Assembly: GCA_041674525.1 (NCBI GenBank) | Contig: JBAYVN010000002.1 | Location: 9,841-73,840, forward strand | Length of the DNA: 64,000 bases | Source: Dehalococcoidia bacterium | GTDB taxonomy: Bacteria; Chloroflexota; Dehalococcoidia; UBA2979 | Reading direction: 5' to 3' | Shown here: piece by piece, positions 3,931 through 38,055 of the stretch | Position numbering within the stretch: position 1 is the stretch's first letter | How the letters are laid out: the number at the start of each line of letters is the position of its first letter | Notes under the pieces: generated by a model | What the model saw: the letters and a program-made list of their open reading frames with translations, nothing else | What the model was told of the DNA's origin: nothing | Databases searched by the model: none | Program-made: the position numbers and the translations under genes

Positions 3931-4091
3931 TCGCCACGCCCGCATCGCGGAGCACGCAGCGCGGCCCCCGGGGCTCCCGTTTGCGCCGGTTGCGTTCACG
4001 TTTGTGATTGACGGGCGGGTTAGCATACGCCCGCCAGTTGAATCAGCGCGTGCTTCGCAATACCGGCGAGCCGCGGAAAGGGTGCGCGGCC

Positions 4092-11947: not shown

Positions 11948-12067
11948 GCAGCGCTCCGTTCGCGATCCTCGCGTGCATTCTGCCACCGCGTGGCTACTCC
12001 AGCGGCGCCACGAGCTAGCGCACGCTCCCCGCGGCGGTTCCGCGAACGCCGCAGTCCCGGGGAGGCA

Positions 12068-12142
12068 GGTCGCGAGAGACCGGGTCGCGAGAGACTGGGT
12101 CGCGAGAGACTGGGTCGCGAAAGACTGGGTCGCGGGACACGG
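12068..12142. repeat. Five tandem copies of a 15-bp unit (GGTCGCGAGAGACTG)
   Basis: Read directly: ggtcgcgagagaccg, ggtcgcgagagactg, ggtcgcgagagactg, ggtcgcgaaagactg, ggtcgcgggacacgg. Intergenic, upstream of the minus-strand hydrolase gene. Confidence 0.85.
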
Positions 12143-12169
12143 AGAAGCCCGCCGAATGGCGGGCTTCTC
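12142..12169 (-). terminator. GC-rich hairpin (gagaagcccgcc-gaat-ggcgggcttctc) downstream of the hotdog gene pair
   Basis: Perfect 12-bp stem with a 4-nt loop, 39 nt after the minus-strand stop at 12208. Confidence 0.6.
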
Positions 12170-12207
12170 TCATCGGCCAGCGGTCGCGCGAACGCGCCGC
12201 CGGGACG

Positions 12208-12759
12208 CTACTGGCAGACGACGGTCGCCTTGCCCTCGAGGTCCCACATCGGCGTGGTGGTCGGGTACTTGGTGGACGGCAGCGCCACGATGACGGTGCC
12301 GGTCATGCCCACGCGGCGAGGCGTGTGCGACAGCATCGTCAGCTCGACGAAGTTCAGGCCGTTCTCCTGCCACTTCTTCGTGATCTTCCCACCGACGTGG
12401 ATGATGTCACCCGACAGGTGGAAGTTGGTGATGCGGAAGGTGGCGGACCGTACGCGGCCGTAGATGCCCATCCAGTCCGAGATCACGCGCTCCCACAGCA
12501 TCAGGCAGGAGTTGTTCTGGAGGAACATGCGCTCGGCGTTGTTGGCCTGGGCGACGCGGTCGTTGTGGTGCAGGCCGGGGTAGTTCCGGGTGGCGCCCAC
12601 GAACATGATCATGCGCTGGACGGTCAGGTTGAAGTCGACGGTCGGGATCTCGTCGTCGACGTTGACGCCCTCGAAGTAGACCTGGGGCGGAATCGGGTAC
12701 TGGACCGTGTTGTTGTCGTTCCCGTAGAACGTGGGCATTTGCGCGGGGTTACGTGGCAT
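12208..12759 (-). CDS. Hotdog-fold (MaoC-like) dehydratase subunit
   Basis: 183 aa. The single-hotdog pattern ..GDIIHVGGKIT.. is typical of MaoC/HadB-type (R)-hydratase halves. It follows a second hotdog gene directly. Confidence 0.6.
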   Translation of the reverse strand: MPRNPAQMPTFYGNDNNTVQYPIPPQVYFEGVNVDDEIPTVDFNLTVQRMIMFVGATRNYPGLHHNDRVAQANNAERMFLQNNSCLMLWERVISDWMGIYGRVRSATFRITNFHLSGDIIHVGGKITKKWQENGLNFVELTMLSHTPRRVGMTGTVIVALPSTKYPTTTPMWDLEGKATVVCQ

Positions 12760-12815
12760 GTGCGTTCTCCTTCAGCGTTGATCGAGAGGGATGCGGGTTG
12801 CGATCGTCCGGCTCG

Positions 12816-13448
12816 CTATGAGCCGGGCTCGTCAACCACGCCCTCCTTGCGCACGAAGGAGTAGGTCCCCTGCGTCGCGCGGGCGACGATCTGGCCGAAC
12901 TGGTTGAAGTAACTGGTGTCGTAGCCAATGAACGCGCCGATGCCGACGCGCGTCTCGCGCGGCGTGACGTGGTGCAGTACGCGACCCATGGTGGTGAGCC
13001 GGTCGCCCAGGCACACGGGCTCGAAGAACTCGATCGTCATGTCCGTGAAGAAGCCGGCGTTGGTCGGCGGCACCGGCGGACCGCCTGCGGACGGCTGGCG
13101 GTTGGCCAGCTGGGACTGGAAGTCCATGTCCACGTCCAGCGGGAAGCGCGTCGGCTGGCCCGGGCGCCAGTTGCCCCCGTAGGTGGGGACTTCCTTGACC
13201 ATGGCCCAGGGCACCACCTGGCTGCGGTAGCCGGCCATGCGGGCGACTTCCTCGTCCCAGTAGAGCGGGTTGCCGATCTCGGCCGGTTCGCAGTAGCGCG
13301 AGAGCATCACCTTATCGACGCGCTCGTCGGCGACCATGATGATGCCGCCGGAGTAGTCCTCGCCGATGTGCTTCGCGGTGTCTTCCCAGGTGACGTTCGG
13401 GTCGCCCCGCATCGGGCGCGCCGCTGGTGGTGTCTGTTCGGTTGTCAT
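12816..13448 (-). CDS. Hotdog-fold (MaoC N-terminal-like / FAS1-like) dehydratase subunit
   Basis: About 210 aa from MTTEQ with an AAGGACG RBS. Resembles the non-catalytic hotdog half of two-subunit hydratases. The pair 13448>12208 is reminiscent of HadAB, Mch and itaconyl-CoA hydratase. Confidence 0.6.
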   Translation of the reverse strand: MTTEQTPPAARPMRGDPNVTWEDTAKHIGEDYSGGIIMVADERVDKVMLSRYCEPAEIGNPLYWDEEVARMAGYRSQVVPWAMVKEVPTYGGNWRPGQPTRFPLDVDMDFQSQLANRQPSAGGPPVPPTNAGFFTDMTIEFFEPVCLGDRLTTMGRVLHHVTPRETRVGIGAFIGYDTSYFNQFGQIVARATQGTYSFVRKEGVVDEPGS

Positions 13449-13769
13449 TCTTACGTCCTTCGTGCGTGCTCTCTGGCTGCGGAACTGCTCGGCTCTCGGC
13501 TCTCGGTCGCTCCTTACGCTCTCGCGATCGCTCCGCCCGCATGGTAGCGGCGCCGCGACGCTCCTGCCTGTCTCTCCCGGCCCGGCGCCGGGGATGTGCC
13601 GCGAGGTCAATCGGTCCGGCATCCACAGCGCGGGGGGCCACCCTCACCCGCCGGAAAGGCCGGCGCGCGCACTGATACCACATCCTCACGCGCCGTGCCA
13701 GCGAAGCACCCCGGGGCAGGCGGGCAGGGGCCGGACCATGCCCGGCCCGGCGAGCCGCCTCGGCGCGGG

Positions 13770-14465
13770 TCAGGCGCGGTCGACGAAGCGGTAGCCCACG
13801 CCCGGCTCCGTCAGGAGGTGCCGCGGGCGCTGGGGATCCGGCTCGATCTTCTTGCGGAGGCGTGCGACGTAGACGTGGAGGTAATGGTTCTCGTCACCGT
13901 ACTCCGGCCCCCAGACCTCGCGCAGGAGGGCGCGGTCGGTCAGCACGCGGTCGCGATGCGTGACGAACGCCTTCAGCAGGTCGTATTCGGTGGGCGTCAG
14001 GTGCACCTCCTCGGCGCCGATGGTGACGCGCCGCCGCTCCAGGTCCACCGTCAGGTCGCCGCTGCTCCAGCGCGCCTCGCTCCCGCTGCGCGGCGACGCC
14101 ACGTGGCGGATGGCCACGCGGATGCGCGCGAGGAGCTCCTCCACCCCGAACGGCTTCGAGACGTAATCGTCCGCCCCGGCGTCCAGGGCCGCGACGCGAT
14201 CGCGCTCCGCCTCGCGCGCGGACAGCACGATGATCGGGAGGCTGGAATGCTCACGCACGGCGCGGATGAAGTCCACGCCGTCCATGTCGGGGAGGTTCAG
14301 GTCCAGCACCACCAGGTCGGGATGGCGGCTGCCGAGTTGGTCGAGGCCGCCGACCGCGGTCTCTGAGGTAAACACCTCGTACCCGCGCGCCTCCAGGTTG
14401 CGGCGCAGCAGCCGGAGCATCTGCGGCTCGTCATCGACCACCAGCAGGCGCGCACCGGTGCTCAT
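13770..14465 (-). CDS. OmpR/PhoB-family response regulator (KdpE-like)
   Basis: Receiver domain (LLVVDDE..D..) plus winged-helix output (..VGYRF). Confidence 0.85.
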   Translation of the reverse strand: MSTGARLLVVDDEPQMLRLLRRNLEARGYEVFTSETAVGGLDQLGSRHPDLVVLDLNLPDMDGVDFIRAVREHSSLPIIVLSAREAERDRVAALDAGADDYVSKPFGVEELLARIRVAIRHVASPRSGSEARWSSGDLTVDLERRRVTIGAEEVHLTPTEYDLLKAFVTHRDRVLTDRALLREVWGPEYGDENHYLHVYVARLRKKIEPDPQRPRHLLTEPGVGYRFVDRA

Positions 14466-14474
14466 GCGCGCACC

Positions 14475-16052
14475 CTACGCCTCGGTCCGCGGCGGGACCA
14501 TGCCGGCGGGCCGGGGGAGCGTGACCACGAACCGCGCGCCGCCGCCGGGGGCGTTGGAGGCGGCGATCGTGCCACCATGTGCCGCCACCAGGGCGTGCGC
14601 CACCGCCAGTCCCAGCCCCGTGCCGCGCTGGTCCCGCAGGCCGCGCTCCCGGGCGAACGGCTCGAAGAGGTGCGGAAGCACGTCCGCGGGGATCCCGGGC
14701 CCGTCATCCGCGACGGTGATGCGCAGGTCCCCCCCCGCGTCCTCCACCCGGACGTCGATCGCGGTCTCGGGGGGCGTGTGCCGGCAGGCGTTCTCCACGA
14801 GGTTCGCCACGACCTCGCCGATCGCCACGGGGTCCAGCACCGCGGACGAGAGGTCGTTGGCCGCGTGGAGGACGATGCGCCTGCCGGGGAGTGCATCGCG
14901 AAGGCGGGCCACCGTGGCCGCGACCACGTCCGCAGGGTCGTGCCACTCCCGGGTCAGCGCGAGCGTCCCCGACTCGATGCGCGAGAGGTCCAGCAGGTGG
15001 CGCACCATCTGGTCCAGCCGGTGCGCCTCGCCGGTGATCGCGTCGATGAACTCGCGGCGTTCCTCGGTCTTCCAGTCGATGTCGGAGCGGAGGCTGTCCG
15101 CGGCGGCGACGATCGCGGCGAGCGGGGTGCGCAGATCGTGCGAGACGGTGTTCAGCAGGATCGTCCGCAGCTCGTCCGCGCGGCGCAGGGCCTCCACCTC
15201 CGTCGCCTCGTGGCGCAGGCGGTCGCGCTCCACGGCCTCGGCCACCTCGTCCGCGGTGGCGGAGAGGAGGCGCTGGGTGATCGCATCCAGCGGGGGGCCC
15301 CCCGGGGGCAGCGCCACCGTCACCCAGCCGGCACCGTCCGTGCCGATGCGGACGTGGTACACGTCGAACCGCCCCGGCTGGCGGTGGCGCAGGCCGGTCC
15401 GGGTGCTGATCCACCGCCGCGGGCGGAAGCCGTTGGCGGCATCCTCCGCGCTCGCCAGGATGCGCCCCTCGCCGTAGCGCCCCAGCCCGCGCACGTAGCG
15501 GAGCGCTTCCTGGTCGCCGGACGAGGCGACGAGGGGCTCCGGGTCGCGAGACACGCTGATCGTCACGGCGGTCGCGCCCACCGCATTGGTGAGCACCGCC
15601 GCCGTCTCCTGCAGCCCTCCGGCCAGGGACTCGCCCGCCATGACGTGCGCGACGCGATAGAGCACCGAGGCGGCGCGCTCGTTGAGGCGAGCCTCGTCCG
15701 TGCGCCGCCGCACCAGCGTGGCGAGCTGCGCCGTGACCAAGCCGGTGAGCAGGAGCACCGACAGCGTGATCCACTCGACGGGGTCGGCCACGGTGACCGT
15801 GTAGTACGGCACCACGAAGAGCAGGTCGAACGCCAAGAACGAGGCCACGGCGGCCGTCACCGCTGCGGCACGCCCGGCGACGATCGCCACCACCAGCACC
15901 GCCGCGATATAGAGGACGGAGAGCCCGGCCACGGGCGTGTACGGCCGGGCAAGCGCGATCGCACCCGAGACCGCGCCGACGACGGCGAGCGCGAGACCGG
16001 TGCGCACCCACGGCTCGTTCCAGACGCGCGCGAGGCCACCGGGTGTCCGCAT
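14475..16052 (-). CDS. Sensor histidine kinase with KdpD-type TM (DUF4118) and GAF-like region; no KdpD N-terminal domain
   Basis: Four N-terminal TM helices, then HisKA (SHDLRTPL) and HATPase_c (G-box) motifs. Sits directly upstream of the KdpE-like regulator. No kdpABC genes are in the window. Confidence 0.8.
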   Translation of the reverse strand: MRTPGGLARVWNEPWVRTGLALAVVGAVSGAIALARPYTPVAGLSVLYIAAVLVVAIVAGRAAAVTAAVASFLAFDLLFVVPYYTVTVADPVEWITLSVLLLTGLVTAQLATLVRRRTDEARLNERAASVLYRVAHVMAGESLAGGLQETAAVLTNAVGATAVTISVSRDPEPLVASSGDQEALRYVRGLGRYGEGRILASAEDAANGFRPRRWISTRTGLRHRQPGRFDVYHVRIGTDGAGWVTVALPPGGPPLDAITQRLLSATADEVAEAVERDRLRHEATEVEALRRADELRTILLNTVSHDLRTPLAAIVAAADSLRSDIDWKTEERREFIDAITGEAHRLDQMVRHLLDLSRIESGTLALTREWHDPADVVAATVARLRDALPGRRIVLHAANDLSSAVLDPVAIGEVVANLVENACRHTPPETAIDVRVEDAGGDLRITVADDGPGIPADVLPHLFEPFARERGLRDQRGTGLGLAVAHALVAAHGGTIAASNAPGGGARFVVTLPRPAGMVPPRTEA

Positions 16053-16239
16053 CCTTCCATGATGCGCCTGTGCGTCTTAACGGGGCGAGGGACCCGTCCC
16101 AACAGCCCGAGGGCGCGCACGTCCAAACGTACGAACGGTCCGGGATTTGTGTACCATCGGTGCCGGCGAAGATTCGCCGAGATTAAGTAGGTCACGCGCA
16201 CCAAGGACGGGTCAGCCGGCCGTCAGAAGGTCCAGAGGT

Positions 16240-18558
16240 ATGGAGACCACCTCGCGCACGCCCCGTGACCCGGAGGACTCGCTGTCCATCCACAGCGACG
16301 GCCACGCGCAGATCCTGCTGACGCGCTCGGAGCGCCTGGCGGCGTTCGGGACATGGGAGCGGGACGTCGTGACCGGAAGAGGTCGCTGGTCGCCTGAGAC
16401 GTTCCAGCTGATGGGCCTGCACGAGGATGCCGGCGCGCCGGACTTCGATGTCTGGCTCAGCTGGATCCATCCCGAGGACCGCCGGCCCCTCCACGAGGCC
16501 CACGCGCTGGTGGCAACCGGCGGGGCGATCCACGCCGAGCTCACCTTCCGCGTGACCCCGCCGGACGGGCACATGCGCGTGATCCGCGGCAGCGTCTTCC
16601 GCGCGCCGGACCAGCCGGTCGTGCTCGGCATCGCCCACGATGTGACGCCGGAGACGCGGGCGCGCGAGGACGCGGAGCACACTCGCGCGCTCCTGGCGGA
16701 GGCGATCGACGCGGTCCCCGAGGTGATCACGATCCGCGGGAACGACGGGCGCCCGCTGTGGTGGAACCGCGCGCACGAGGAGTTGACGGGCCTGTCGCGT
16801 GAGGCGATCAACGAGTCCCGGCGCGGCGGGTCGATCCACGCGGACGATCTCGCGGCGTTCCTCGCGTGGACAGACGCCGCGACCGACCGCGAGCCGGCAG
16901 CGCCGGGCACGGAGACACCGACGTTCCGCGTGGTGCGCCCGGACGGGTCGATCCGGCACTTCCGGCCGATGCGCGGCGCGACCATCCGCCTGCACGGAGA
17001 GGCCATCGGCGTGGTGCGCTCGGGACGCGACGTGACCGAGGAGGTCCGCGCCCGGCAGGAGGCCGCGGCGCACGCCGCCGAGTCCGCGGCGATCCTGGAC
17101 GGCATCCCCGCAGCCGTCGCGCTCATCGATCCCGCGCAACGCATCGTGCGTTGCAACCGCGCCTTCGTGGACGCCGCCGGGTGCGCGGTGAACGAGGTGA
17201 TCGGGGAGCACGTCGCGCGCTTCCTCGTGGATGCGGCGCCGCTCGCCGCCGCGCACGGTCCGGCACCGGGCGACGCGCGGATCGTGCACCTGCGCCGGCG
17301 CGACGGGTCCACCACACCGGTGTCGCTGACCGCGGGGCCGCTGCGCGACACCGATCCGTCCGGCCCGCGCCTGTTGACGTTCACGGACGCGACGGCGACG
17401 GTGCTGGCAAACGAGCAGGTGCAGGCGCTCCAGCGCCACGAGGCGATCGGGGAGCTGGTTGCCGGGGTCGCCCACGACTTCAACAACCTGTTGACCGGGA
17501 TCCTCGGCCCGCTGCACATGCTGCAGGGGAACCCCCTGGAGCAGCGCTGGCTGGATATCGCCGTCGAGGCCGCCGAACGCGCGGTGCCGCTGACGCGCCA
17601 GCTCCTGGACGCCTCGCGCCCCGTTCCCGCGGAGCTGTCGCCCACCGACGTCACCCGGGTCGCGGCGGACGTGGTGCGCCTGTTCAGCGCGACCAGCGAT
17701 CGCCGCCTGCGCTTCGCGCTGCACCAGCCGCCCCTGGTGCCACACGTAGTGGCGACGGCCTCCGGCCTGCAGCAGGTGCTGATCAACCTCGTCGCCAACG
17801 CGCGCGACGCGGTGCTCGAACGCCTCGAGGCTGATCCGGAGGGACCGGCGGGCACGGTGGACGTGACCATCCGAGTGGACGACGACGCCCCTCCCCGCGT
17901 CTTGGTCAGCGTCGCGGACAACGGCCGCGGCGTCCCCGAGGAGCTCCGAGAGCGGATCTTCGATCCCTTCTTCACGACCAAGCGCAGCGGGAAGGGCACG
18001 GGCGTGGGGCTCCCGACCAGCCGCGCGCTGGTCGCGCAGTACGGGGGCACGCTGACCTTCCATCCCCACCCGGGTGGCGGCACCGTCTTCACCCTCGAGC
18101 TGCCGGTCGCGGGGGCCGCGCTCGAGTCCGGAGCGGCGTCACCCTCGGCGCCCCCGCGCGACCGGCCGCTGGAGGGCATGCGCGTGCTGCTCATCGACGA
18201 CGACGACGCGGTGCGGGCGTACGCGGAGCACGTCCTCACGGTAAGCGGCGCGATCGTCGACTTCGCTGCCAGCGCGGAGATCGGGCTGACGCTCATCGCC
18301 GCCTCGCCTCCCGAGGCCGCGGTCTTCGACCTCAACATGCTGGACATGAGCGGCTGGACATTCCTCCGTCGCGCTCGCGCGCTCGCGCCGGGGGCGCGCC
18401 TGGTGGTGCTGTCCGGCCACGTAGACGCGGAGCAGCAGCGCCGGCACCGCCCGGACGCGGTCGTGTGGAAGCCGTACCGACCGGCGCAACTCGTGCAGGC
18501 GCTGCTCGGCACGCGCTCGACCGGCGCGGCGGAGGCCGCCGGGGGCGCACCAGCTTGA
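16240..18558 (+). CDS. Hybrid sensor histidine kinase with multiple PAS domains and a C-terminal receiver
   Basis: Repeated PAS-like segments, HisKA (AGVAHDFNNLL), HATPase_c (DNGRGVP..GTGVGL), then a receiver (LLIDDDD..D..K). Confidence 0.8.
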   Translation: METTSRTPRDPEDSLSIHSDGHAQILLTRSERLAAFGTWERDVVTGRGRWSPETFQLMGLHEDAGAPDFDVWLSWIHPEDRRPLHEAHALVATGGAIHAELTFRVTPPDGHMRVIRGSVFRAPDQPVVLGIAHDVTPETRAREDAEHTRALLAEAIDAVPEVITIRGNDGRPLWWNRAHEELTGLSREAINESRRGGSIHADDLAAFLAWTDAATDREPAAPGTETPTFRVVRPDGSIRHFRPMRGATIRLHGEAIGVVRSGRDVTEEVRARQEAAAHAAESAAILDGIPAAVALIDPAQRIVRCNRAFVDAAGCAVNEVIGEHVARFLVDAAPLAAAHGPAPGDARIVHLRRRDGSTTPVSLTAGPLRDTDPSGPRLLTFTDATATVLANEQVQALQRHEAIGELVAGVAHDFNNLLTGILGPLHMLQGNPLEQRWLDIAVEAAERAVPLTRQLLDASRPVPAELSPTDVTRVAADVVRLFSATSDRRLRFALHQPPLVPHVVATASGLQQVLINLVANARDAVLERLEADPEGPAGTVDVTIRVDDDAPPRVLVSVADNGRGVPEELRERIFDPFFTTKRSGKGTGVGLPTSRALVAQYGGTLTFHPHPGGGTVFTLELPVAGAALESGAASPSAPPRDRPLEGMRVLLIDDDDAVRAYAEHVLTVSGAIVDFAASAEIGLTLIAASPPEAAVFDLNMLDMSGWTFLRRARALAPGARLVVLSGHVDAEQQRRHRPDAVVWKPYRPAQLVQALLGTRSTGAAEAAGGAPA

Positions 18559-18646
18559 GGGCGCGCTTGGTTGTCATCGATTAACGGGCCTCGAGGTGAT
18601 GGTCATCTGGTGAGGGGACACTCAACTCACCTGGGTTCGTGACGCT

Positions 18647-18732
18647 ACGTGATGTCGCACGTGATACCGCAGGTGATGGCGTCACGTGGTGGCATCGGTG
18701 ATCGCCTCACGTGATGTCGCATGTGATAGCGC
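18647..18732. repeat. Array of about seven tandem ~12-bp units with an A(C/G/T)GTGAT core; includes two 26-bp near-identical copies
   Basis: Read directly: acgtgatgtcgc, acgtgataccgc, aggtgatggcgtc, acgtggtggcatc, ggtgatcgcctc, acgtgatgtcgc, atgtgatagcgc. Lies about 190 bp upstream of SBP gene 18920. Confidence 0.8.
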
Positions 18733-18919
18733 CACTGAGCCAGGCGCCCGCTGCTACCGCGCGGCCGCGCGCAATCCGCGCCGCCGCGCGCTTCGTATCC
18801 CCCTTGTAATCAGTCGTGCACCGTACTACACATGACGAGCATTATCGGTACGGATGACGTGTGTGTTTGGGCGGCGTCTTCCCCTGTGCAAGGGGGAACC
18901 GCCGACGAGGGGAGTCCGA

Positions 18920-20662
18920 GTGAACGAGTCTGGATACTGGCAGAAGGTGGCAGCCGGAGGGCTGAACCGCCGCGCATTCCTGCGCTCAGCAGCGGTGACT
19001 GGCGTGGGCGCAGCCGCGTTCCTCGCGGGGTGCGGAACGAGCGCTCCGGAGAAGCCCGCCGCGGGCGGCACCGGCGGCGCCGGGGGCACCGCAACTCCCG
19101 CGGCATCCGCGGGCGTCTTCGCGAACCCGAAGGGGAAGAAGGGCGGGACGATCACCGATGTGGGGCTGGACCCCACGACCGGGTGGGACCCGCACGGCAA
19201 CATCGGCTACCTCACGGGCACGATCACCGAGCCCCTGGGAATCAAGCTGATCCGGCACGACTACACGGGCATCAAGACCAAGTGGACCGTCGGCGCGGAG
19301 GAACTCATCATCGGCGAGCTCGCCGAGAAGTGGGAGACGCCTGACGCCCTGACCTACAACATGACGATCCGCAAGGGGCTCAACTGGCCGAACCAGGAGC
19401 CGATGAACGGCCGCCCGATCACGGCCAAGGACGTCGTCTACAACTTCAAGCACTACGCGCTGCCCACCAGCCAGGTGCAGACGTGGGTCTCCAACAACAT
19501 CAAGTCGTGCACGGCGATCGACGACAACACGGTGCAGTTCAAGCTGAACTACCCGCACTGGCGCTGGGCCGGCGACCTGGACTCCTACAACACGATGATC
19601 CAGCCCGAGGGCCTGTACGAGTGGGCCAAGGGCGACGTGAAGGAGGCCACCAAGGCACGCGGCGGCGGCCCATGGATCCTCGACTCGTACCAGGCTGGCT
19701 CCGTGGCGCGCTTCATCCCGAACGAGTCCTACCGCAAGTTCTTCGGTGTCCCGTACGCCGACAAGCTGAACGTGGCGATCCTCGCGACGGGCTCTCCGCG
19801 CCTGCAGGCGTGGGCCGGGAAGAACGTCCAGTTCTTCACGCCGCTGCCGGGACAGATGGACACCGCGAAGAAGGCTCGCCCGGAGTCGCAGTGGACCACG
19901 AACTACGCGGCCACGAACACGAACGCGCTCTTCATGAAGACGGCGCAGAAGCCGTTCGATGACGTCCGCGTCCGCCGCGCGCTGTCCATGTCCGTCGACC
20001 GCGACGGCTGGGGCAAGACCCTGCAGAACGAGTTCAAGTGGGAGAGCGGTCCGATCACGTGGGGCTACCCGACGTGGAAGCTCGACCACACGAAGATGCC
20101 GGCCGAGACGCAGAAATGGCTGAAGGTCGACATCGCCGAGGCGAAGAAGCTCATCGACGCCGCGGGCGTGACGACGGCGAAGACGTTCACGATCCACATG
20201 TACCCGTACAGCCCGGACTACACGCCGGAGGCGCAGTTCCTGATCGACTCGCTGAAGAAGATCGGCGTGAACTCCGCGCTGAAGGTGTACGAGTACAACA
20301 ACTGGCTCGCCACCGCGTACACCGGCAAGTACGAGGACCTGCTCTACGGCCCGGACAACCTGGACCGCGTGACGCAGCAGCTCTCCGACCGCTTCACCGC
20401 GACCTCGGAGCGCAACCACTCGGGCGTCCAGGACGCGGAGATGCAGAAGATGCTCGCCGACTTCGGTGCGGCGAAGACTCCGGCGGACGCCAAGGCGGTC
20501 TCGGACAAGATCCAGACGCGCTCGGTGGATCAGGCCTTCGCCGTCTACCGGCCGCAGCCGGTGAGCCCGCTGACGTGGGACCCGTCGATCCAGAACTACG
20601 ATGGACAGGCCCCCATCCTGTACCACACGTTCTACCGCGACGCGTTCTCGTGGCTCGGATAG
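18920..20662 (+). CDS. ABC-type solute-binding protein, family 5 (peptide/nickel/opine-type), Tat-signal lipoprotein
   Basis: Twin-arginine motif (RRAFLRSAAVTGVGAAAFLAGC) with lipobox Cys, then an SBP_bac_5 fold pattern. GTG start chosen by alignment with paralog 22547 (shared GGAG..GTCCGAG RBS context). No permease or ATPase genes nearby. Confidence 0.8.
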   Translation: MNESGYWQKVAAGGLNRRAFLRSAAVTGVGAAAFLAGCGTSAPEKPAAGGTGGAGGTATPAASAGVFANPKGKKGGTITDVGLDPTTGWDPHGNIGYLTGTITEPLGIKLIRHDYTGIKTKWTVGAEELIIGELAEKWETPDALTYNMTIRKGLNWPNQEPMNGRPITAKDVVYNFKHYALPTSQVQTWVSNNIKSCTAIDDNTVQFKLNYPHWRWAGDLDSYNTMIQPEGLYEWAKGDVKEATKARGGGPWILDSYQAGSVARFIPNESYRKFFGVPYADKLNVAILATGSPRLQAWAGKNVQFFTPLPGQMDTAKKARPESQWTTNYAATNTNALFMKTAQKPFDDVRVRRALSMSVDRDGWGKTLQNEFKWESGPITWGYPTWKLDHTKMPAETQKWLKVDIAEAKKLIDAAGVTTAKTFTIHMYPYSPDYTPEAQFLIDSLKKIGVNSALKVYEYNNWLATAYTGKYEDLLYGPDNLDRVTQQLSDRFTATSERNHSGVQDAEMQKMLADFGAAKTPADAKAVSDKIQTRSVDQAFAVYRPQPVSPLTWDPSIQNYDGQAPILYHTFYRDAFSWLG

Positions 20663-20710
20663 CGGCTCGGTAGCCACCGCGGCGCACGGGCCGCTCGCAG
20701 GCCGATGACA

Positions 20711-20741
20711 GAAGGCCCCGGAACCTGGTTCCGGGGCCTTC
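20711..20741. terminator. Bidirectional hairpin (gaaggccccggaacc-t-ggttccggggccttc)
   Basis: Perfect 15-bp stem between the convergent SBP (+) and CapA-like (-) genes. Confidence 0.65.
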
Positions 20742-20838
20742 TTGCTGTCCCTGCTCCTGCGCCGCCGTCCGGCTGCCTCGACGCCCGGCCGCTGCCTGTC
20801 GCGCTGGACGGCCAGCGCCCGAGGTCCTCGCTCCCGGG

Positions 20839-22188
20839 CTAGAGGCGAATCCGTCCGATGTCGCCCTCGATCGTGATCTCGGTGCCGAAGGGCTCCGACA
20901 CCTTCTGCAACCACCGCAGGATCTCCTGCGCGACCGGCCCGCGCGCCAGCAATGGGCGCCCGCGCTGGGGAATCGGCCGACCGAAGCCGAGGTCGATCGG
21001 ATGCAGTGTGACCTCGGTCAACCGCTTTGCCTTGAAGTGACAGACGCCCACCACGCTCTGCCAGAAGACCGGGTCCGCGGGGAAGCCTCGACCGTCCGAG
21101 TCAGAGCGCGCCTCGAAGAAGTCGCCCGGCGTGTGCGAGTGATCCAGGCCGAAGCGGCGGTAGCCTTCGTCCGGCACCCAGTCGACCGTCTCGTTCTCGA
21201 AGACGAAGTTGCCCAGGCTGTAGAAGATCGGCGCGCCGTTGTAGATCTCGATGCCGCGCAGCAGGTGGGGCCCGTGGTTCGCCACCACGTGGCACCCCTG
21301 GTCCACGGCCCAGCGGGAGAACTCCACCAGGTAGTCCGGCGGCGCGGTGCGCGGGCCGCCGTGGCGTTCCCCGGTGGTGCCGCTGTCGTGGCAGTGGACG
21401 CTGTAGACCAGCCAGTCCGCCTGCTTGCGGGCGCCGCGGATCCAGTTGCCAATCCCGGCCAGGTCGTCCCGGTTCACGCTGGTGCTGATCTTGAACCCGT
21501 CGCCCAGGTGGAACTCGTTCTCCATGAACTTCGCGGCCACGCTCTTATCCACCGGCGCGACGCGCCCGGAGAAGCCGAACTGCTCCGAGGCCTCGGCGGC
21601 CTCGTCGTAGCCCAGCTCGCGGTTCGCCCGGTGCAGCGCGTCGAGGATGTCGCGGGGAACAGTGTGCTGCTTCTGGTGCCGCAGCGCGTTGATGCCGGGA
21701 CGGCCGGGGAAGTCCGGGCGTCCGCGACCCGCCCGCGAGATCTCGGAGAAGCTGCTGGACGCGGACATCAGCGCCACGCGCCCCTTCGGCGAGTCGACGT
21801 ACCCGGGGGCGCGCGCGTGATCGATGTCACGCCCACCGCCCGCGTACGGGATGTCCATGTCCTCCAGGTGCTTGAGCGTGGTGAGGTAGCCGCCCTCCGA
21901 GAAGTCGAAGGAGTGGTTGTTCGCAGTGCCGACCGCGTCGATCCCCATCCACTTCAACTCGGCGAGGTTCTTGGGATCGGATCGCGTGTAGGTGGCGCCG
22001 GACCAGTTCCATGACGTCTCGAAATCGTGGAAGAGCATCTCGAGGTTGGCGATGCTCACGTCTGCGCCGCGCAGGAGTTCCACCAGCCCCAGGTAATCGG
22101 GCTCGCGGAAGCTGCGCATCCGTCGCGTGACCATCGCGTCGCCGACCACGGCCATCGAGATGTCTCCGCTTTCGGACTCATACAACAT
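20839..22188 (-). CDS. CapA/PGA_cap family metallophosphatase-like protein
   Basis: About 450 aa from MLYESESGD with calcineurin-like metal-ligand patterns (GNHSFD.., ..VHCH.., GNFVFE). The N-terminal 51 codons of the ORF are probably not translated. Confidence 0.7.
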   Translation of the reverse strand: MLYESESGDISMAVVGDAMVTRRMRSFREPDYLGLVELLRGADVSIANLEMLFHDFETSWNWSGATYTRSDPKNLAELKWMGIDAVGTANNHSFDFSEGGYLTTLKHLEDMDIPYAGGGRDIDHARAPGYVDSPKGRVALMSASSSFSEISRAGRGRPDFPGRPGINALRHQKQHTVPRDILDALHRANRELGYDEAAEASEQFGFSGRVAPVDKSVAAKFMENEFHLGDGFKISTSVNRDDLAGIGNWIRGARKQADWLVYSVHCHDSGTTGERHGGPRTAPPDYLVEFSRWAVDQGCHVVANHGPHLLRGIEIYNGAPIFYSLGNFVFENETVDWVPDEGYRRFGLDHSHTPGDFFEARSDSDGRGFPADPVFWQSVVGVCHFKAKRLTEVTLHPIDLGFGRPIPQRGRPLLARGPVAQEILRWLQKVSEPFGTEITIEGDIGRIRL

Positions 22189-22450
22189 GGGCCATTCCTG
22201 ATCCTGCGGCCGGCGCCGCCGTGCTGAACGCGTGCTTCGGACTGCCTGCAACGTGTGTGATGCGAGGCCTGCTCCGAGCAGTACGCCAGGCCGTACGCGG
22301 ACACAAGGTGCGTCCCCTCCAAACGACCAGTGCGATCCCATCTATCCGCGGGACGAGGGTTGCGCGATGTGCCTACGCTCCGGGACGAAAGTCCCCCAAC
22401 AACCGGGACATCGTGGCTGTAATGACCCCCCTGCCGGCGCTATAACCCGC

Positions 22451-22510
22451 ACGTGATGCCGCACGTTCACACGTGATGAGCACACGAAGCGCGATAAGCA
22501 CGCCAGCCTG
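22451..22510. repeat. Second array of ACGTGAT-core ~12-bp units
   Basis: Contains acgtgatgccgc, acgttcacac, gtgatgagcac and gataagcac. About 40-95 bp upstream of SBP gene 22547. Confidence 0.65.
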
Positions 22511-22546
22511 GCGTGCCAGGGGATCCGCCTGGAGGGAAGTCCGAGT

Positions 22547-24292
22547 ATGAGCGATTCGAGTTACTGGCAGCGCAAAATCGCCGGGCCGGGGCTGGGCCGG
22601 CGGACGTTCCTGCGCTCGGCCGCGGTCACGGGGGTGGGCGCCGCGGCCTTCCTCGCAGGGTGCAAGTCGAACGCACCGAGCACGCCCGCCGCTGGCGGCG
22701 GCGCCGCTGGTGGCGCCGCCTCGGCGTCATCCGGCCCATCACTGGGCGTGTTCCAGGTCCCGGAAGGCAAGCGAGGCGGCACGCTCGTCGATGTCGGCAT
22801 CGACCCGACCACGGGCTGGGACTCGCACACCACGTCCGCGCAGCAGACCACCCAGAACCTCGAGCCACTGCACATCAAGCTGATCCGGCACGACTACCGC
22901 AAGAACTTCAAGGCCGGCGATGACACCCTCATCGGGGAGCTCGCCGAGAAGTGGGAGTCTCCTGACCCGCTGACCTACAACTTCACGCTCCGCAAGGGCA
23001 TCAACTGGCCCGACCAGGAGCCCATGAAGGGCCGCCCGATCACGGCGCAGGACGTGAAGTACGCCTTCGACGCCTGCATGTCTCCCACCGCGCAGGTGCA
23101 GGAGTATGTGTTCGGCAACATCGCCTCCACGACGGCCGTGGACGACGGGCAGTTCCAGATCAAGCTGAAGCAGCCCAACCTGTTCTTCCCCAGCGACATC
23201 GACTCGTTGAACACGATGATCGTGCCAAAGGGCATCTACGAGTGGGCCGGCGGGACGATGAAGGACCCGGCAAAGGTGCGCGGCGGTGGCCCATGGCTGC
23301 TGGAGGAGTATCGCGCCGGGTCGCTCGTGAAGATGAAGCCGAACGAGGCCTACCGGAAGGTCTTCGGCGTCCCCTACGCCGACAACTTCAACGTCGCGAT
23401 TGTCGCGACCGGCGCGCCACGATTGACCGCGTTCGTGGCGAAGAACGTGATGTTCTTCGCCCCGGCGGCCGGCCAGCTGGAAACGGCGAAGAAGAGCCGA
23501 CCGGACGCGAAGGTCATTGAGGACGCGTACCCGTCGTCGGGCGGCACGTCCATCTCGATCAAGCAGATCGACAACAAGCCGTTCGACGACGTGCGCATCC
23601 GGCGCGCGATGTCCATGGCGATCGACCGTGACGGCTGGGGCAAGACCTTCCAGGTCCCGTACAAGATGGAGTCCGGCCCCATCTCGTGGGGCTACCCCAC
23701 GTGGAAGCTCGACCCGGCGAAGCTGCCGGCCGAGACGGCCAAGCTCGTCAAGTACGACGTGGCCGAGGCGAAGAAGCTGCTGGACGCCTCTGGCTTCAAG
23801 CAGCCCGGCGAGATCCTCATGCACTACTACCCGTACAGCCCGGACTACGCGGGTTGGTCCCAGTTCCTGCTGGACTCGTTCTCGAAGATCGGCATGAAGG
23901 TCACGCCGAAGGTGTACGAGTACAACAACTGGCTCGGCACCGCGTTCATCGGCAAGTACACCGGCCTGATGTTCGGCCCGGATGCCAGCATCGACCGGCC
24001 GTCGCCGATGCTGTGCGACCGGCTGCGCAAGGGCTCCGCGCGCAACCACTCGTTCATCGAAGACGCCACCACGCAGAAGATGCTCGCCGACTTCTGGGGC
24101 GCCAAGAGCATCGCCGACGCCAAGCCGATCGCCGAGGCGGTCCAGGCGCGATCGATCAGCGAGGTGTTCTCGATCTACAGCCCCATGGGCGTCGCTCCGA
24201 AGCTCTGGGACCCGGCCGTCCAGAACTACAACGGCCAGCAGGCGTTCAACCACCAGTTCGAATACAAGAACGCCTTCTACTGGCTGGCATAG
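22547..24292 (+). CDS. ABC-type solute-binding protein, family 5, Tat-signal lipoprotein (paralog of 18920..20662)
   Basis: MSDSSYWQRKIAGPGLGRRTFLRSAAVTGVGAAAFLAGC start, then the same domain pattern. Strong GGAGGGAAG RBS. Confidence 0.85.
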   Translation: MSDSSYWQRKIAGPGLGRRTFLRSAAVTGVGAAAFLAGCKSNAPSTPAAGGGAAGGAASASSGPSLGVFQVPEGKRGGTLVDVGIDPTTGWDSHTTSAQQTTQNLEPLHIKLIRHDYRKNFKAGDDTLIGELAEKWESPDPLTYNFTLRKGINWPDQEPMKGRPITAQDVKYAFDACMSPTAQVQEYVFGNIASTTAVDDGQFQIKLKQPNLFFPSDIDSLNTMIVPKGIYEWAGGTMKDPAKVRGGGPWLLEEYRAGSLVKMKPNEAYRKVFGVPYADNFNVAIVATGAPRLTAFVAKNVMFFAPAAGQLETAKKSRPDAKVIEDAYPSSGGTSISIKQIDNKPFDDVRIRRAMSMAIDRDGWGKTFQVPYKMESGPISWGYPTWKLDPAKLPAETAKLVKYDVAEAKKLLDASGFKQPGEILMHYYPYSPDYAGWSQFLLDSFSKIGMKVTPKVYEYNNWLGTAFIGKYTGLMFGPDASIDRPSPMLCDRLRKGSARNHSFIEDATTQKMLADFWGAKSIADAKPIAEAVQARSISEVFSIYSPMGVAPKLWDPAVQNYNGQQAFNHQFEYKNAFYWLA

Positions 24293-24320
24293 CAAACTAA
24301 GCAAAACAAGTGCATCATCC

Positions 24321-24348
24321 GGGAACTCACCCTTCGGGGTGAGTTCCC
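24321..24348 (+). terminator. Hairpin gggaactcaccc-ttcg-gggtgagttccc downstream of the SBP gene
   Basis: Perfect 12-bp stem with a tetraloop, 29 nt after the stop. Confidence 0.6.
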
Positions 24349-24379
24349 GCTGATTGGCCCTGACAGTGGAGCGTGGTGG

Positions 24380-25618
24380 ATGACGTCCGCGAACAACCCG
24401 ACGGCAACCCAGCCCCCCGGGATCCTCGCCGGGGTCCGGGTGCTGGACCTCACCCGGCACATCGCCGGGCCGTACTGCACGAAGCTGATGGCGGACTACG
24501 GCGCCGACGTCATCAAGATCGAACAGCCGGGCACCGGTGACCCCTCCCGGCACTTCCCGCCGTACTACCACGACCAGCCGGACCAGGAGGGGAGCCTTCA
24601 CTTCCTCTACCTGAACACCAGCAAGCGCAGCGTCACGCTGGACCTGAAGACCGAGCGTGGACGCCAGATCTTCCTCGACCTCGCGCAGCAGGCGGACGTG
24701 GTCGTGGAGAACTTCCGGCCGGGCGTCATGGACTCGCTGGGGATCGGCTGGGAGACACTGCACGCCCTCAAGCCGAGCCTCATCCTCACCTCGATCTCGA
24801 ACTTCGGGCAGACGGGGCCGTATCGCGACCTGAGGGCGACCGAGCTCATCGAATACGCGATGAGCGGGGTCATGACGATCAGCGGCCGCGAGGACCGCTC
24901 GCCGCTGAAGCACGGCCTCTCGCAGGCCCAGTACGACACCGGGGCCAACGCCGCGTGGGTGACGGCGATGATGCTGTTCTGGCAGGTCCAGGGCCGCGCC
25001 GGGCAGCACGTGGACATCGCCATCCGCGACACGGTCGCCGGCACGCTGGTGCTGAACGAGCCGTACTACGCGTGGATGGGCGGCATCCAGGGCCGGCGCA
25101 CCTCCGCCGGCGACGGCACGGGCAACGGGCTCAGCGACATCATGCCCTGCGCGGACGGCTACGTGATCGTCCAGCACCGCAACACGCAGCCATGGCAGAA
25201 CGTCGTCGATTTCCTGCGGGCGCCCGAGCTGGACGACGACCGCTTCCACACCAACGACGGCCGGATGCTGAACGGCGAGGAGCTCTACGAGATCCTCAAG
25301 AAGGCGCTCTCCACGCGCACCAAGCGCGACCTGCTGGACGATGGTGCGGCGCACCGCGTCCTGCTCGGCATCGTGCAGGACCCCTCGGACCTGGTGAGCT
25401 GCCCGCACCTCAATGCCCGCGGCTACTGGGTGGACGTGGAGCACCCGGCCACCGGCCCGATGAAGTACCCCGGCGCCCCCGTGCGGCTCCCCGGCACCAC
25501 GTGGCGGATCCGGCGCCACGCCCCGCTCCTCGGCGAGGATACCGACGAGGTACTCGAGTCTGAGCTCGGCATCGGCCAGGCGGAGCGCGACGCGCTGCGC
25601 GCGCAGAAGGTGATTTGA
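24380..25618 (+). CDS. Family III CoA-transferase (CaiB/BaiF family)
   Basis: GVRVLDLTRHIAGPYCTKLMADYGADVIKIE N-terminal signature, with the catalytic Asp region. Confidence 0.85.
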   Translation: MTSANNPTATQPPGILAGVRVLDLTRHIAGPYCTKLMADYGADVIKIEQPGTGDPSRHFPPYYHDQPDQEGSLHFLYLNTSKRSVTLDLKTERGRQIFLDLAQQADVVVENFRPGVMDSLGIGWETLHALKPSLILTSISNFGQTGPYRDLRATELIEYAMSGVMTISGREDRSPLKHGLSQAQYDTGANAAWVTAMMLFWQVQGRAGQHVDIAIRDTVAGTLVLNEPYYAWMGGIQGRRTSAGDGTGNGLSDIMPCADGYVIVQHRNTQPWQNVVDFLRAPELDDDRFHTNDGRMLNGEELYEILKKALSTRTKRDLLDDGAAHRVLLGIVQDPSDLVSCPHLNARGYWVDVEHPATGPMKYPGAPVRLPGTTWRIRRHAPLLGEDTDEVLESELGIGQAERDALRAQKVI

Positions 25619-26991
25619 GGCCGCCCGTGACCACAGAGAACAGCCTGCCCCTTGATGGCATCCGCGTCCTGGATCTGAGCTCCGTCTGGGCCATGCCGTA
25701 CGCGGCGGGCGTGCTGACGGACCTCGGCGCCGAGGTGATCAAGATCGAGGCGCTCCAGCGACTGGACTCCAGCCGCGAGATGGGCGTCTGGCCGGACACG
25801 ATGGGCGGATCCGAGCCGTGGAACTCGGTGGGGACGTTCTCCGTCCTCAACCGCGGCAAGCGGTCGATCACCCTCAACCTCTCGGACCCGCGGGGCCGTG
25901 ACATCTTCCGCGAGCTGGTGAAGATCTCCGACATCGTGATCGAGAACTACACCGCGCGGGTGATGCGGAACTGGGACCTGGACTTCGAGCACCTGAACGA
26001 GCTCCGGCCGGGGATCATCATGGTGTCGAACACCGGCTACGGACACGCCGGGCCGTGGGAGAGCTACCCCGTCCAGGGCACCGCGCTCGAGGCGACCGTG
26101 GGCATCCCGAACTTCTCCGGGTATGCCGGCGGCCGCCCGTGGACCATCGGCCAGTCCTACCCGGACTTCGTCGCCATGTGGCACGGCCTGTTCTGCGTGA
26201 TGTCCGCGCTTCGCCGCCGGGCGCTGACCGGCGAGGGCCAGTGGATCGACCTCGGCATGTACTCCGCGAACGTCGCGATGCAGGGCGAAGCGATGCTCGA
26301 CTTCATCGCCAACGGCCGCAAGGGCGAGCGCATCGGCAACCGGGACCACATCCAGAACGTGCAGGGCGCATACCAGACGCAGGGCGACGACGCGTGGATG
26401 ACTCTGGCCGCGCAGACGGACGCGGAGTGGGCCGCGCTCTGCGGTGTCCTCGGCCCCACCGCGTGGGGAAGCAGCACCCCGCCGGCGACGCTGGCCGAGG
26501 CGCGCGTGCGCCACGACGAGGTGGACGGGGTGATCGGGGCATGGGCGGCGACGCAGACGCGGGAAGGCGCGGTGGACGCCATCCGCGCCGCCGGCATAGC
26601 CGCGGGCCCCTGCAACGACGCCCGCGACCTGTTCTTGGATCCGCAGCTCAAGCTGCGCGGATTGTACGAGTGGGTGGATCACGCGCCGGGCACGGGCGTC
26701 GGGCGACGGCCGATCATCGGTCGCGCGTTCCGGCTGAGCGACACGGAGCTCAAGGTGCGCGGCGGTGCCCCGCCGCTGGGCGAGGCGAACGAGTACGTGT
26801 TCAAGGAGCTGCTCGGCCACTCGGCCGTGGAGTTCGAGGAACTGGTGGAGCGGGAGATCACGGGCAAGCGTGAGCCGCTGGTGGAGGAGATGAGCGGCCT
26901 GCCGATCGACGCCCTGCTGGGCGTCCGCCGCATCCGGGTCTACGACCCGGAATACAAAGAGCGTCTGGGCATCGTTCTCGAGCCGGACTAG
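25615..26991 (+). CDS. Family III CoA-transferase (CaiB/BaiF family), second copy
   Basis: GIRVLDLSSVWAMPYAAGVLTDLGAEVIKIE signature. Overlaps the previous stop by 4 nt. Start is TTG at 25615 or GTG at 25627. Confidence 0.8.
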   Translation: MRPPVTTENSLPLDGIRVLDLSSVWAMPYAAGVLTDLGAEVIKIEALQRLDSSREMGVWPDTMGGSEPWNSVGTFSVLNRGKRSITLNLSDPRGRDIFRELVKISDIVIENYTARVMRNWDLDFEHLNELRPGIIMVSNTGYGHAGPWESYPVQGTALEATVGIPNFSGYAGGRPWTIGQSYPDFVAMWHGLFCVMSALRRRALTGEGQWIDLGMYSANVAMQGEAMLDFIANGRKGERIGNRDHIQNVQGAYQTQGDDAWMTLAAQTDAEWAALCGVLGPTAWGSSTPPATLAEARVRHDEVDGVIGAWAATQTREGAVDAIRAAGIAAGPCNDARDLFLDPQLKLRGLYEWVDHAPGTGVGRRPIIGRAFRLSDTELKVRGGAPPLGEANEYVFKELLGHSAVEFEELVEREITGKREPLVEEMSGLPIDALLGVRRIRVYDPEYKERLGIVLEPD

Positions 26992-27004
26992 CGAGGAGCA
27001 TGGA

Positions 27005-27925
27005 ATGAAGCTGCTGTTTTTCGACGACTTCAAGTTCGGCGCGTTGAAGGGCAACGACACCGTCGTCGACCTCTCGGCGCAGGTCGCGGGGATCCCCCAC
27101 GCACAGCCGCAGGACATCATCCGCGGCGTGATCGAGAAGTGGGACGAGTACAGGCCGAAGCTCGAGGCTGCAGTGGCCAGCGGCAGCGGCGTGCCGCTGT
27201 CCAGCGTCCGCATCCGCCCGCCGCTGCCGAAGCCCACGAACATCGCCTGCATGGCGGTGAACTACATGGAGAACGGCACCCGGTCCGAGCCCGCGCCGAT
27301 CAACGCCTTCGGCAAGTCGCCGCTCGGCATCATCGGCGACGGCGACACGATGGTCCTGCCGGACGTCCCCGCGACGATCTTCGAGGGCGAGGCCGAGTTC
27401 GCGATCGTCATCAGCAAGTACGCCTCGAACGTCCCCGCGGCGCAGTGGGAGGACTACGTCTTCGGGTACATCAACTTCATCGATGGCTCTGCCCGCGGCA
27501 TCGGCGACTGGTTCAAGATGAAGTCGCGCGACACGTTCGCGCCGATCGGCCCCTTCCTCACCACCAAGGACGAGATCAAGGACCCGCAGAACCTGGCGAT
27601 CAAGCTCCACGTCAACGGCGTCCTGAAGCAGGACTTCAACAGCAACGACATGGCCCACAAGCTCCCGCGCTGCGTGGAGTTCGTGACCTCCGTTCACCCC
27701 ATGGAGGCGGGCGACATCATTCCCACGGGCACCAACCACCGTGGCCTGAACGCCTTCCAGGACGGCGACCTGGTCACCCTGGAGACTGAGTGCCTGGGCA
27801 AGCTCACGATCCACGTGAAGGATGACCTGAAGCGCACCTGGGGTCGCGAGACGCGCCTCGAGCTGCAGGAGAAGGGCATCGAGGGCACCACGCCGCAGCT
27901 CACCGGCAAGTACGCCAAGGCGTAG
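27005..27925 (+). CDS. Fumarylacetoacetate hydrolase (FAH) family protein, paralog of 6278..7210
   Basis: Same architecture and motifs (..EFAIVISK.., DYVFGY.. , GDIIPTGT). 13 nt after the CoA-transferase gene. Confidence 0.8.
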   Translation: MKLLFFDDFKFGALKGNDTVVDLSAQVAGIPHAQPQDIIRGVIEKWDEYRPKLEAAVASGSGVPLSSVRIRPPLPKPTNIACMAVNYMENGTRSEPAPINAFGKSPLGIIGDGDTMVLPDVPATIFEGEAEFAIVISKYASNVPAAQWEDYVFGYINFIDGSARGIGDWFKMKSRDTFAPIGPFLTTKDEIKDPQNLAIKLHVNGVLKQDFNSNDMAHKLPRCVEFVTSVHPMEAGDIIPTGTNHRGLNAFQDGDLVTLETECLGKLTIHVKDDLKRTWGRETRLELQEKGIEGTTPQLTGKYAKA

Positions 27926-27945
27926 CCCTCGCCGGGTCGTAGCAG

Positions 27946-27976
27946 GAGGGGCGGTAGCGGCTCGCTACCGCCCCTC
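27946..27976. terminator. Hairpin gaggggcggtagcg-gct-cgctaccgcccctc followed by TTTC
   Basis: Lies between the convergent FAH (+) and nitroreductase (-) genes. Confidence 0.6.
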
Positions 27977-28008
27977 TTTCGTTCGGGGGCGCCGTCCCTG
28001 CCCCGCCG

Positions 28009-32220: not shown

Positions 32221-32239
32221 TGCAGACGAGGGACGAGGC

Positions 32240-32953: not shown

Positions 32954-32976
32954 CGAACGTAGCCAGGGGGGCATGC

Positions 32977-34194: not shown

Positions 34195-34208
34195 GACTGG
34201 AGGCATCA

Positions 34209-36619: not shown

Positions 36620-36659
36620 CCGAGAACGGACAGAGCGGACAGAGCGGACGGAGCCAGCG

Positions 36660-37568: not shown

Positions 37569-37577
37569 GAGCGTGAC

Positions 37578-38052: not shown

Positions 38053-38055
38053 GTG

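Follow-up and report, generated by a model that had tools for sequence, protein, structure and literature searches.

The stretch of DNA analysed here (the window, 64,000 nt of contig JBAYVN010000002.1 from a Dehalococcoidia bacterium) has a GC content of 70% and carries, between a hybrid histidine kinase gene and a gene for a family-5 solute-binding protein (SBP), a tandem array of short direct repeats. The kinase gene (16240-18558, plus strand) encodes 772 aa with the Pfam architecture PAS-PAS-HisKA-HATPase-REC, and the array lies in its 3' flank. The gene downstream, SBP1 (18920-20662, plus strand; Pfam SBP_bac_5, E = 1.3e-50), encodes a protein with a twin-arginine signal, a lipobox and the invariant pattern RRxFLR...LAGC. 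From the kinase stop codon at 18558, the 361-bp spacer (63% GC) holds degenerate half-sites (18596-18643), the array, a hairpin (18759-18789), the sequence TTGTAAT (18804) and a leader that precedes the GTG start codon at 18920. Alignment of the protein family puts the SBP1 start at GTG 18920 and not at ATG 18854; the statement of an earlier note on this DNA that the kinase gene ends about 90 bp upstream of the repeats was accurate, the stop codon lying 88 bp before the first unit. Judging from sequence patterns, we hold it moderately probable that the array is a tandemly amplified cis-regulatory cluster of predicted regulator-binding boxes, belonging to a lineage-specific regulon.

The array spans 18647-18733 and consists of seven units of 12-13 bp with a GTGAT core, all on the plus strand (seven to eight boxes are counted overall). 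The units follow the pattern A-C-G-T-G-A-T-n-n-C-G-C (array consensus ACGTGATnnCGC) and start at 18647 (ACGTGATGTCGC), 18659 (ACGTGATACCGC), 18671 (AGGTGATGGCGTC), 18684 (ACGTGGTGGCAT), 18696 (CGGTGATCGCCTC), 18709 (ACGTGATGTCGC again, identical to unit 1) and 18721 (ATGTGATAGCGCC). Successive spacings are 12, 12, 13, 12, 13 and 12 bp, with a mean of ~12.4 bp. Columns G3, T4, G5, T7 and C10 are invariant across the seven units, and GTGAT (the ATCAC core of the opposite strand) is present in six of them. The earlier note had described seven consecutive 12-13-bp units sharing A(C/G/T)GTGAT; the array itself withstood Tandem Repeats Finder and shuffling, with the exact core found in five of the seven units and missed by one base in the other two. 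The same sequence can be parsed alternatively as three 25-bp super-units, CACGTGrTnnCGCAnGTGATnGCGy, which start at 18658, 18683 and 18708 and are identical to each other at 16-20 of 25 positions. Degenerate half-sites precede the core array on the same strand, at 18596 (GTGAT), 18610 (GTGAG) and 18639 (GTGAC), and RNA folding predicts a small GGTGAG/CTCACC hairpin at 18609-18631.

Several methods recover the periodicity. Tandem Repeats Finder reports a period of 12 (6.6 copies, 65% matches, 16% indels, 18647-18727) and a period of 25 (3.5 copies, score 76, 18649-18735), and a repeat search of the window returned four 28-nt copies at spacings of 12, 25 and 25. Autocorrelation of the spacer peaks at lags 12 (0.47), 25 (0.54) and 37 (0.50), with a value of 0.11 at lag 11. 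One strand of the 361-bp spacer contains seven copies of GTGAT, compared with a mean of 0.77 and a maximum of 5 in 5000 dinucleotide shuffles, and the array ranks among the two densest 5-mer clusters of the window. Its sequence is identical in an independently assembled ENA contig.

The segment 18647-18670 is repeated on the plus strand at 18709-18732. These copies, given as 26 bp long in the earlier note, measure 24 bp and match at 22 of 24 positions, indicating an internal duplication of ~62 bp. Near-identical 24-mers and partly matching 25-bp super-units thus imply that the array grew by nested local duplications. A search of the whole window with the 24-mer, allowing up to three mismatches, retrieved just the two copies at 18647 and 18709, both inside the array, and the phased pattern has no second occurrence anywhere in the window. 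The possibility that the repeats belong to a scattered repetitive element, which according to the earlier note would have refuted its reading, is thereby excluded for the window, as is a dispersed element of the REP (repetitive extragenic palindromic) or MITE (miniature inverted-repeat transposable element) type. A phase-variable contingency repeat was likewise rejected, the units being too degenerate and the ENA assembly identical. Open reading frames (ORFs) crossing the array are all 49 aa or shorter and every frame contains stops, which rules out a coding repeat. Matches to ACGTGATnnCGC in proteobacterial loci were set aside as irrelevant; they stem from a conserved permease coding motif, ILPNVMPPVIV.

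The same box recurs at the paralog SBP2 (22547-24292, plus strand; identified by Pfam), whose product is 56% identical in amino acids to SBP1 and whose gene is followed by two family III CoA-transferase (coenzyme A transferase) genes. Within 22450-22480, on the plus strand, lie CACGTGATGCCG at 22450, a degenerate CACGTTCA at 22462 and CACGTGATGAG at 22470. An ACGTGAT-rich array similar to the first had been claimed to precede the gene at 22547; what we find there is two exact copies of CACGTGAT, at 22450 and 22470 and 20 bp apart, together with the degenerate CACGTTCA, and no 12-bp phasing. Intergenic CACGTGAT occurs in the window only at 18658, 18708, 22450 and 22470. A matrix built from the seven array units has its best intergenic match outside the array at 22451 (15.8 bits), a score reached by a single match in 56 kb of coding DNA, and by our estimate the chance that the best match would fall within the 205-bp upstream region of SBP2 is ~0.003. 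In locus L095, the closest homolog of SBP2 for which DNA is available (69% identical), the arrangement TATCAC-N25-GTGATA flanks its TATAAC. The proposal that the two paralogous cassettes share one regulator is therefore upheld as far as the box is concerned, given the exclusivity of CACGTGAT, the match at 22451 and the enrichment in orthologs described below; no regulator was found.

Generic scans for sigma-70 promoters and for terminators found nothing. Since the sigma-70 scan was empty, we inferred promoters from words enriched across the SBP family. The words most enriched in 21 family upstream regions over control DNA are TGTAAT, ATAACG and GGAGGGA; 10 of the 21 regions have TGTAAT, which occurs a single time in the 19.9 kb of intergenic control DNA. 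In most family members an element TTGTnn-N17-19-TATAAC ends 72-100 nt ahead of the start codon. On this basis the putative SBP1 promoter (18804-18832, plus strand) has its -35 element, TTGTAA(T), at 18804-18810 and, after a spacer of 17 nt, a weak -10 element TACACA at 18827-18832. The putative SBP2 promoter (22417-22446, plus strand) consists of CTGTAA(T) at 22417-22423, a spacer of 17-18 nt and TATAAC at 22441-22446, with 11 of 12 consensus matches. The array would thus occupy about -195 to -105 relative to the predicted SBP1 start, with a leader of ~80 nt, and a gap of ~70 bp separates its end at 18733 from the predicted -35 element at 18804. The SBP2 boxes begin 4 nt past the predicted -10 element and so overlap the predicted transcription start.

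The gap upstream of the SBP1 promoter contains a GC-rich inverted repeat, GCGCGGCCGCGCG-caatc-CGCGCCGCCGCGC (18759-18789, plus strand; 14-nt arms, 93% complementary), which forms a stem in the predicted fold and stands between the array and the SBP1 promoter. This hairpin is terminator-like and probably marks the end of the kinase transcript. The SBP1 leader has a predicted stem-loop at 18870-18903 (plus strand) and a ribosome-binding site, GAGGGGAG, at 18907-18914 (plus strand), assigned from coordinates and from comparison of family leaders. A good terminator hairpin at 20711-20741 closes the gene, which argues that SBP1 is monocistronic. The promoter-like element of the family (L008-L015, L089-L102, L169, L170; loci carry L numbers here) has a -10 element that ends in C or G and not in T, which is odd for sigma-70. 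A GGCAGGGG box ~25-30 nt 5' of the start codon is conserved in part of the family, and the spacer AGTCCGAGT 5' of the start codon is identical in SBP1 and SBP2.

A search of 5.8 billion proteins yielded 38 members of the SBP family, at 51-100% identity over the aligned segment, the next match being at 30%. The GTDB genome CANJBO01 holds seven paralogs, most of the remaining members come from one metagenome, and the sample that gave the window contains at least three (SBP1, SBP2 and L173). The family (SBP1, SBP2, L173, L009-L015) is lineage-restricted and expanded, with an invariant twin-arginine signal and lipobox. Most of its genes have no permease or ATPase genes beside them and adjoin genes for CoA-transferase III, MFS, acyl-CoA dehydrogenase and HpcH proteins.

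We compared 22 further upstream regions of this family, with the array region excluded from the counts. GTGAT occurs 34 times in them against 14.4 +/- 3.8 in dinucleotide shuffles (z = 5.2), ACGTGAT 6 times against 1.3 (z = 4.2) and the post hoc motif ATCACGYG 8 times against 1.4 (z = 5.7). The density of ATCACGYG is 1.33 per kb in family upstream DNA, 0.15 in control intergenic DNA and 0.24 in coding DNA, and the 10-mer ATCACGTGCG occurs nine times in 1.17 Mb, six of them in family upstream regions. The boxes are also clustered. Only three places in 1.25 Mb have at least four same-strand GTGAT words within 90 bp. One is the array described here; another, from -222 to -156 relative to the start codon, lies upstream of L009 (a 74%-identical ortholog, with its duplicates); the third is a 15-bp repeat at 37991 that is unrelated. 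When either strand is allowed, 261 kb of Chloroflexota DNA contains six clusters, of which four fall in 5' spacers of 310-610 bp that precede SBP1-clade genes (in the window, L009, L010/L174 and L169). Six (A)ATCACGTGCGATGTG units lie upstream in L091. In that locus, the region 3420-3960 (= L176) is a 610-bp spacer of 60/120-bp repeats with a (GTGCGCT)x4 run, and the adjoining SBP is 64% identical. A further GTGAT cluster, at 41423-41634 in the window, was set aside as lying mostly within a lipoprotein gene.

The coding-strand word is GTGAT in the window and ATCAC in L009, L010 and L091, and near-palindromic boxes occur in L009 (ATCACGCGTGTA) and L094 (TGTGATGTATCACA). Orientation that differs among loci is expected of a DNA site and not of an RNA motif. 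Transcription-factor sites usually show themselves in just this way, as a box enriched and clustered 5' of one gene family, on either strand and with rapid turnover of its positions. The repeats thus likely behave as protein-binding DNA boxes, and the box shared by the paralogs is likely one of them.

On the reading that we favour, the box has a GTGAT core, extended to (C)ACGTGAT, or ATCACGTG(CG) on the opposite strand, and would be bound by a sequence-specific protein. Local duplication of one or two boxes at a time, in segments of 12-13 or 25 bp, together with the ~62-bp duplication, would have generated the seven to eight same-strand boxes that lie ~105-195 bp upstream of the predicted SBP1 start. 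Several protomers may load cooperatively on this array. Each box is turned by ~65 degrees from the one before it, the spacing being ~12.4 bp, so bound proteins would spiral round the helix and not line one face. They may tune SBP1 transcription from its weak promoter. The same protein would bind the two boxes over the predicted SBP2 start, a position typical of repressors that implies repression there, and the box clusters upstream of SBP1-clade orthologs, giving a small lineage-specific regulon.

A number of observations weigh against this reading. At 12.4 bp, neighbouring boxes do not share one face of the helix, as the sites of simple cooperative activators usually do. Inside the array, the GTGAT core is more conserved than the spacer, but with internal duplication discounted the difference loses significance (p ~0.2 by our estimate). 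Box number, spacing and orientation vary among orthologs, phylogenetic footprinting in pairs of orthologous upstream regions (L010 and L169; the window with L008 and L009) shows box positions that are not conserved, and L173, the third paralog of the same sample, has no box. The motifs ATCACGYG and ATCACGTGCG were chosen with the data already seen, and part of the family ATCAC signal consists of -10-like hexamers, as seen in L089 (TATCACGTGCGT) against the 93%-identical L100 (TATAACGTGCGT). No conserved adjacent regulator gene was found across the SBP family loci, and no binder was found.

Some of these points suit the strongest alternative, in which the array is a neutral, decaying, minisatellite-like duplication that arose by slippage or unequal recombination and has no function, the shared motif reflecting composition and promoter words. 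The units are degenerate (65% matches), their most similar copies are accounted for by the single ~62-bp duplication, and ATCAC can be a -10 variant. Further intergenic tandem repeats occur at 12068-12134 and 37991-38057 and in L091, so these genomes apparently form repeats often. Orthologous upstream regions show little conservation and align mainly in the proximal promoter and leader. Neutral duplication alone, however, does not predict that the best external match of the array matrix falls precisely in the 205-bp upstream region of SBP2, that no intergenic CACGTGAT occurs in the window beyond the two SBP regions, or that clusters lacking tandem structure stand upstream of at least four other SBP1-clade genes and are rare elsewhere. 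The enrichment also stands against dinucleotide shuffles. We regard this alternative as possible yet unlikely.

The two tandem repeats of the window just mentioned are distinct from the SBP array. The one at 12068-12134 (15 bp x 4.5, GGTCGCGAGAGACTG) has 96% matches and the top Tandem Repeats Finder score of the window, and it occupies the spacer between two minus-strand genes, with a terminator-like hairpin at 12142-12169 directly after it. The one at 37991-38057 (15 bp x 4, GTGATCGAGGTGGTT) contains GTGAT and is otherwise unrelated to the SBP array; it runs from the stop codon of a DUF192 gene to an ORF (38055-38598), putatively a prepilin-peptidase gene, where a Tad/Flp pilus cluster (30761-38600) ends. 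Population variation, compared across seven contigs of the 74%-identical ortholog, amounts to one single-nucleotide polymorphism, too little to be informative.

A bolder form of the favoured reading is distinctly speculative. Here the box would be the operator of a new regulator of expanded, TAT-exported (twin-arginine translocation) SBP lipoproteins in Dehalococcoidia-related Chloroflexota. The protein might assemble on the array as a helical multi-protomer filament, omega/ParR-like with a new spacing, and exert its effect from afar, or separate the kinase gene from SBP1 as a transcriptional roadblock or insulator.

The earlier note had suggested a multimeric response-regulator operator. On this explanation the OmpR-family regulator at 13770-14465, or the partner of the hybrid kinase, binds the array head to tail in the manner of PhoB, PhoP or OmpR. 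The repeats are indeed direct, with seven same-strand units; kinase genes adjoin the array; and the weak putative -10 element of SBP1 is compatible with dependence on an activator. Operators of this regulator family are arrays whose short direct repeats combine a conserved core and a variable spacer; they bind several protomers cooperatively and often stand upstream of SBP or transport genes, as here. An example is the PHO boxes of Streptomyces PhoP, with 11-nt direct repeat units (PMC2275107). The sites of such operators recur every 10-11 bp on one helix face and usually abut or replace the -35 element. The array, by contrast, has a period of 12-13 bp, and its position ~105-195 bp upstream of the predicted SBP1 start, at least ~70 bp upstream of the predicted -35 element with the GC hairpin intervening, weakens the suggestion. 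Boxes in both orientations among orthologs, and near-palindromic ones in L009 and L094, argue further against it, and no two-component genes lie near the orthologs with box clusters.

The candidate regulator fares no better on inspection. The gene at 13770-14465 (minus strand) encodes a KdpE-like OmpR-family protein by Pfam (best NCBIfam match KdpE, 268 bits, below cut-off), and the adjoining kinase gene at 14475-16052 (minus strand) is KdpD-C-terminal-like (DUF4118-HisKA-HATPase; best NCBIfam match KdpD, below cut-off). Together (13770-16052) they are the sole classical two-component pair near the array. The promoter region of this KdpE-like operon (16053-16146) has neither GTGAT nor ATCAC, which speaks against the proposed role of the regulator as binder. 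We consider an OmpR-type operator improbable. The KdpD-like kinase lacks the N-terminal KdpD sensor domain, and no kdp transporter genes were found in the scanned part of the window. The only transcription factors near the array are this KdpE-like regulator and a sigma factor of the ECF (extracytoplasmic function) type at 46186-47637.

An element acting at the RNA level, in the 3' untranslated region of the kinase transcript or in a long SBP1 leader, could consist of ACGUGAU motifs that bind a multimeric RNA-binding protein or of a regulatory fold. The array stands between the kinase stop codon and the sole strong hairpin and is therefore probably transcribed, and its region folds on the plus strand with a z-score of -2.6. 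That fold signal is, however, what the palindromic CACGTG cores of the repeat would be expected to give. Rfam covariance models gave no relevant match in 12000-28000 at an E-value of up to 1, and the gathering threshold was reached neither in the window nor in five ortholog loci. Leader stem-loops are variable, with no covarying or common structure across the family leaders. In L009, L010 and L091 the box is found on the other strand, and at SBP2 the boxes coincide with the predicted transcription start in a divergent promoter region. Together these features make an RNA element very improbable. An array of antisense, -10-like TATCAC promoters was also rejected on inspection, there being no -35-like hexamer at the proper distance.

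Plasmid iterons are tandem units of 17-22 bp with a period of ~22 bp, located beside a rep gene and an AT-rich unwinding element and bound by a multimerising protein. The array shares the tandem direct repeats with them, but neither the unit size and period nor the rep gene and AT-rich unwinding element. The iteron-type operator suggested in the earlier note is thus rejected, as is a replication-origin iteron: the period is 12-13 or 25 bp, the neighbours are a kinase and an SBP gene, the spacer is 63% GC, and plasmid and phage collections have no similarity to the array region.

The weakest explanation takes the array for an iteron, an omega/ParR-type ribbon-helix-helix centromere or a degenerate parS array, and it is scarcely credible, even though the ATCAC core is that of the WATCACW heptad of omega (ParB) of plasmid pSM19035, which forms operators of 7-10 heptads per array in direct or inverted orientation (PMC9499535), and the unit junction TGTCGCACGTGATACC fits the parS consensus with 3 mismatches. 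Omega requires at least four gapless heptads (PMC9499535), and its heptads are contiguous with a 7-bp period, AT-rich, promoter-overlapping and plasmid-borne; none of this holds for the array, whose units are spaced at 12-13 bp. The omega heptads also have a ribbon-helix-helix gene next to them. The best array match to the parS 16-bp palindrome TGTTNCACGTGAAACA has 3 mismatches and is at chance level, at least one such match occurring in 20 of 100 shuffles. A Pfam domain scan covered 49 different ORFs of the window, up to its rightmost ~6 kb; no rep, parA or parB gene was found among these ORFs, and the context is chromosomal and metabolic. No ribbon-helix-helix or ParB domain was found in the same 49 ORFs either, several small ORFs being without a match, and no small ribbon-helix-helix gene was seen in the annotated neighbourhood.

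The closest architectural precedent, by analogy of layout only, is the repeat array of pstS in Streptomyces lividans, where eight degenerate 12-nt repeats are located at -329/-144 from the ATG, their deletion doubles expression, and the binder is unknown (PMC2605767). As in S. lividans and S. coelicolor pstS, ~8 degenerate 12-nt direct repeats stand far upstream of a secreted SBP-lipoprotein gene in a high-GC host, and the array is set apart from the proximal promoter or operator (PMC2605767). The consensus differs, being ACYCASCCMNSV in pstS and ACGTGATnnCGC here (PMC2605767). The hosts belong to different phyla, and the protein is a phosphate-binding PstS in one case and a family-5 SBP in the other.

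No permease or ATPase gene was found in the annotated window. Between SBP1 and SBP2 lies a PGA_cap-family gene (Pfam; 20839-22341, minus strand), whose top NCBIfam match is MslH lasso-peptide C-terminal Trp epimerase, at 304 bits against a cut-off of 700. A near-palindrome, GGTGATCGTGATCAC, occurs in 41620-41680, ahead of a strong terminator hairpin 3' of a small lipoprotein gene (ATG ~41074 to 41555). Third-position GC is above 0.9 in genes of the window and exceeds 0.82 in all called genes other than the ORF at 4020-4529 (minus strand), which has a value of 0.67 and no Pfam match and may be a spurious gene or foreign DNA.

The mechanism that we propose is not new, tandem operator arrays being familiar, and it does not conflict with current understanding. 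To our knowledge, no transcription-factor motif is known for this uncultured Chloroflexota lineage. If the boxes are real operators, they would give the expanded family of orphan solute-binding lipoproteins its first candidate regulon and cis-element, and would offer a handle for finding the regulator and for predicting co-regulated uptake and sensing genes.

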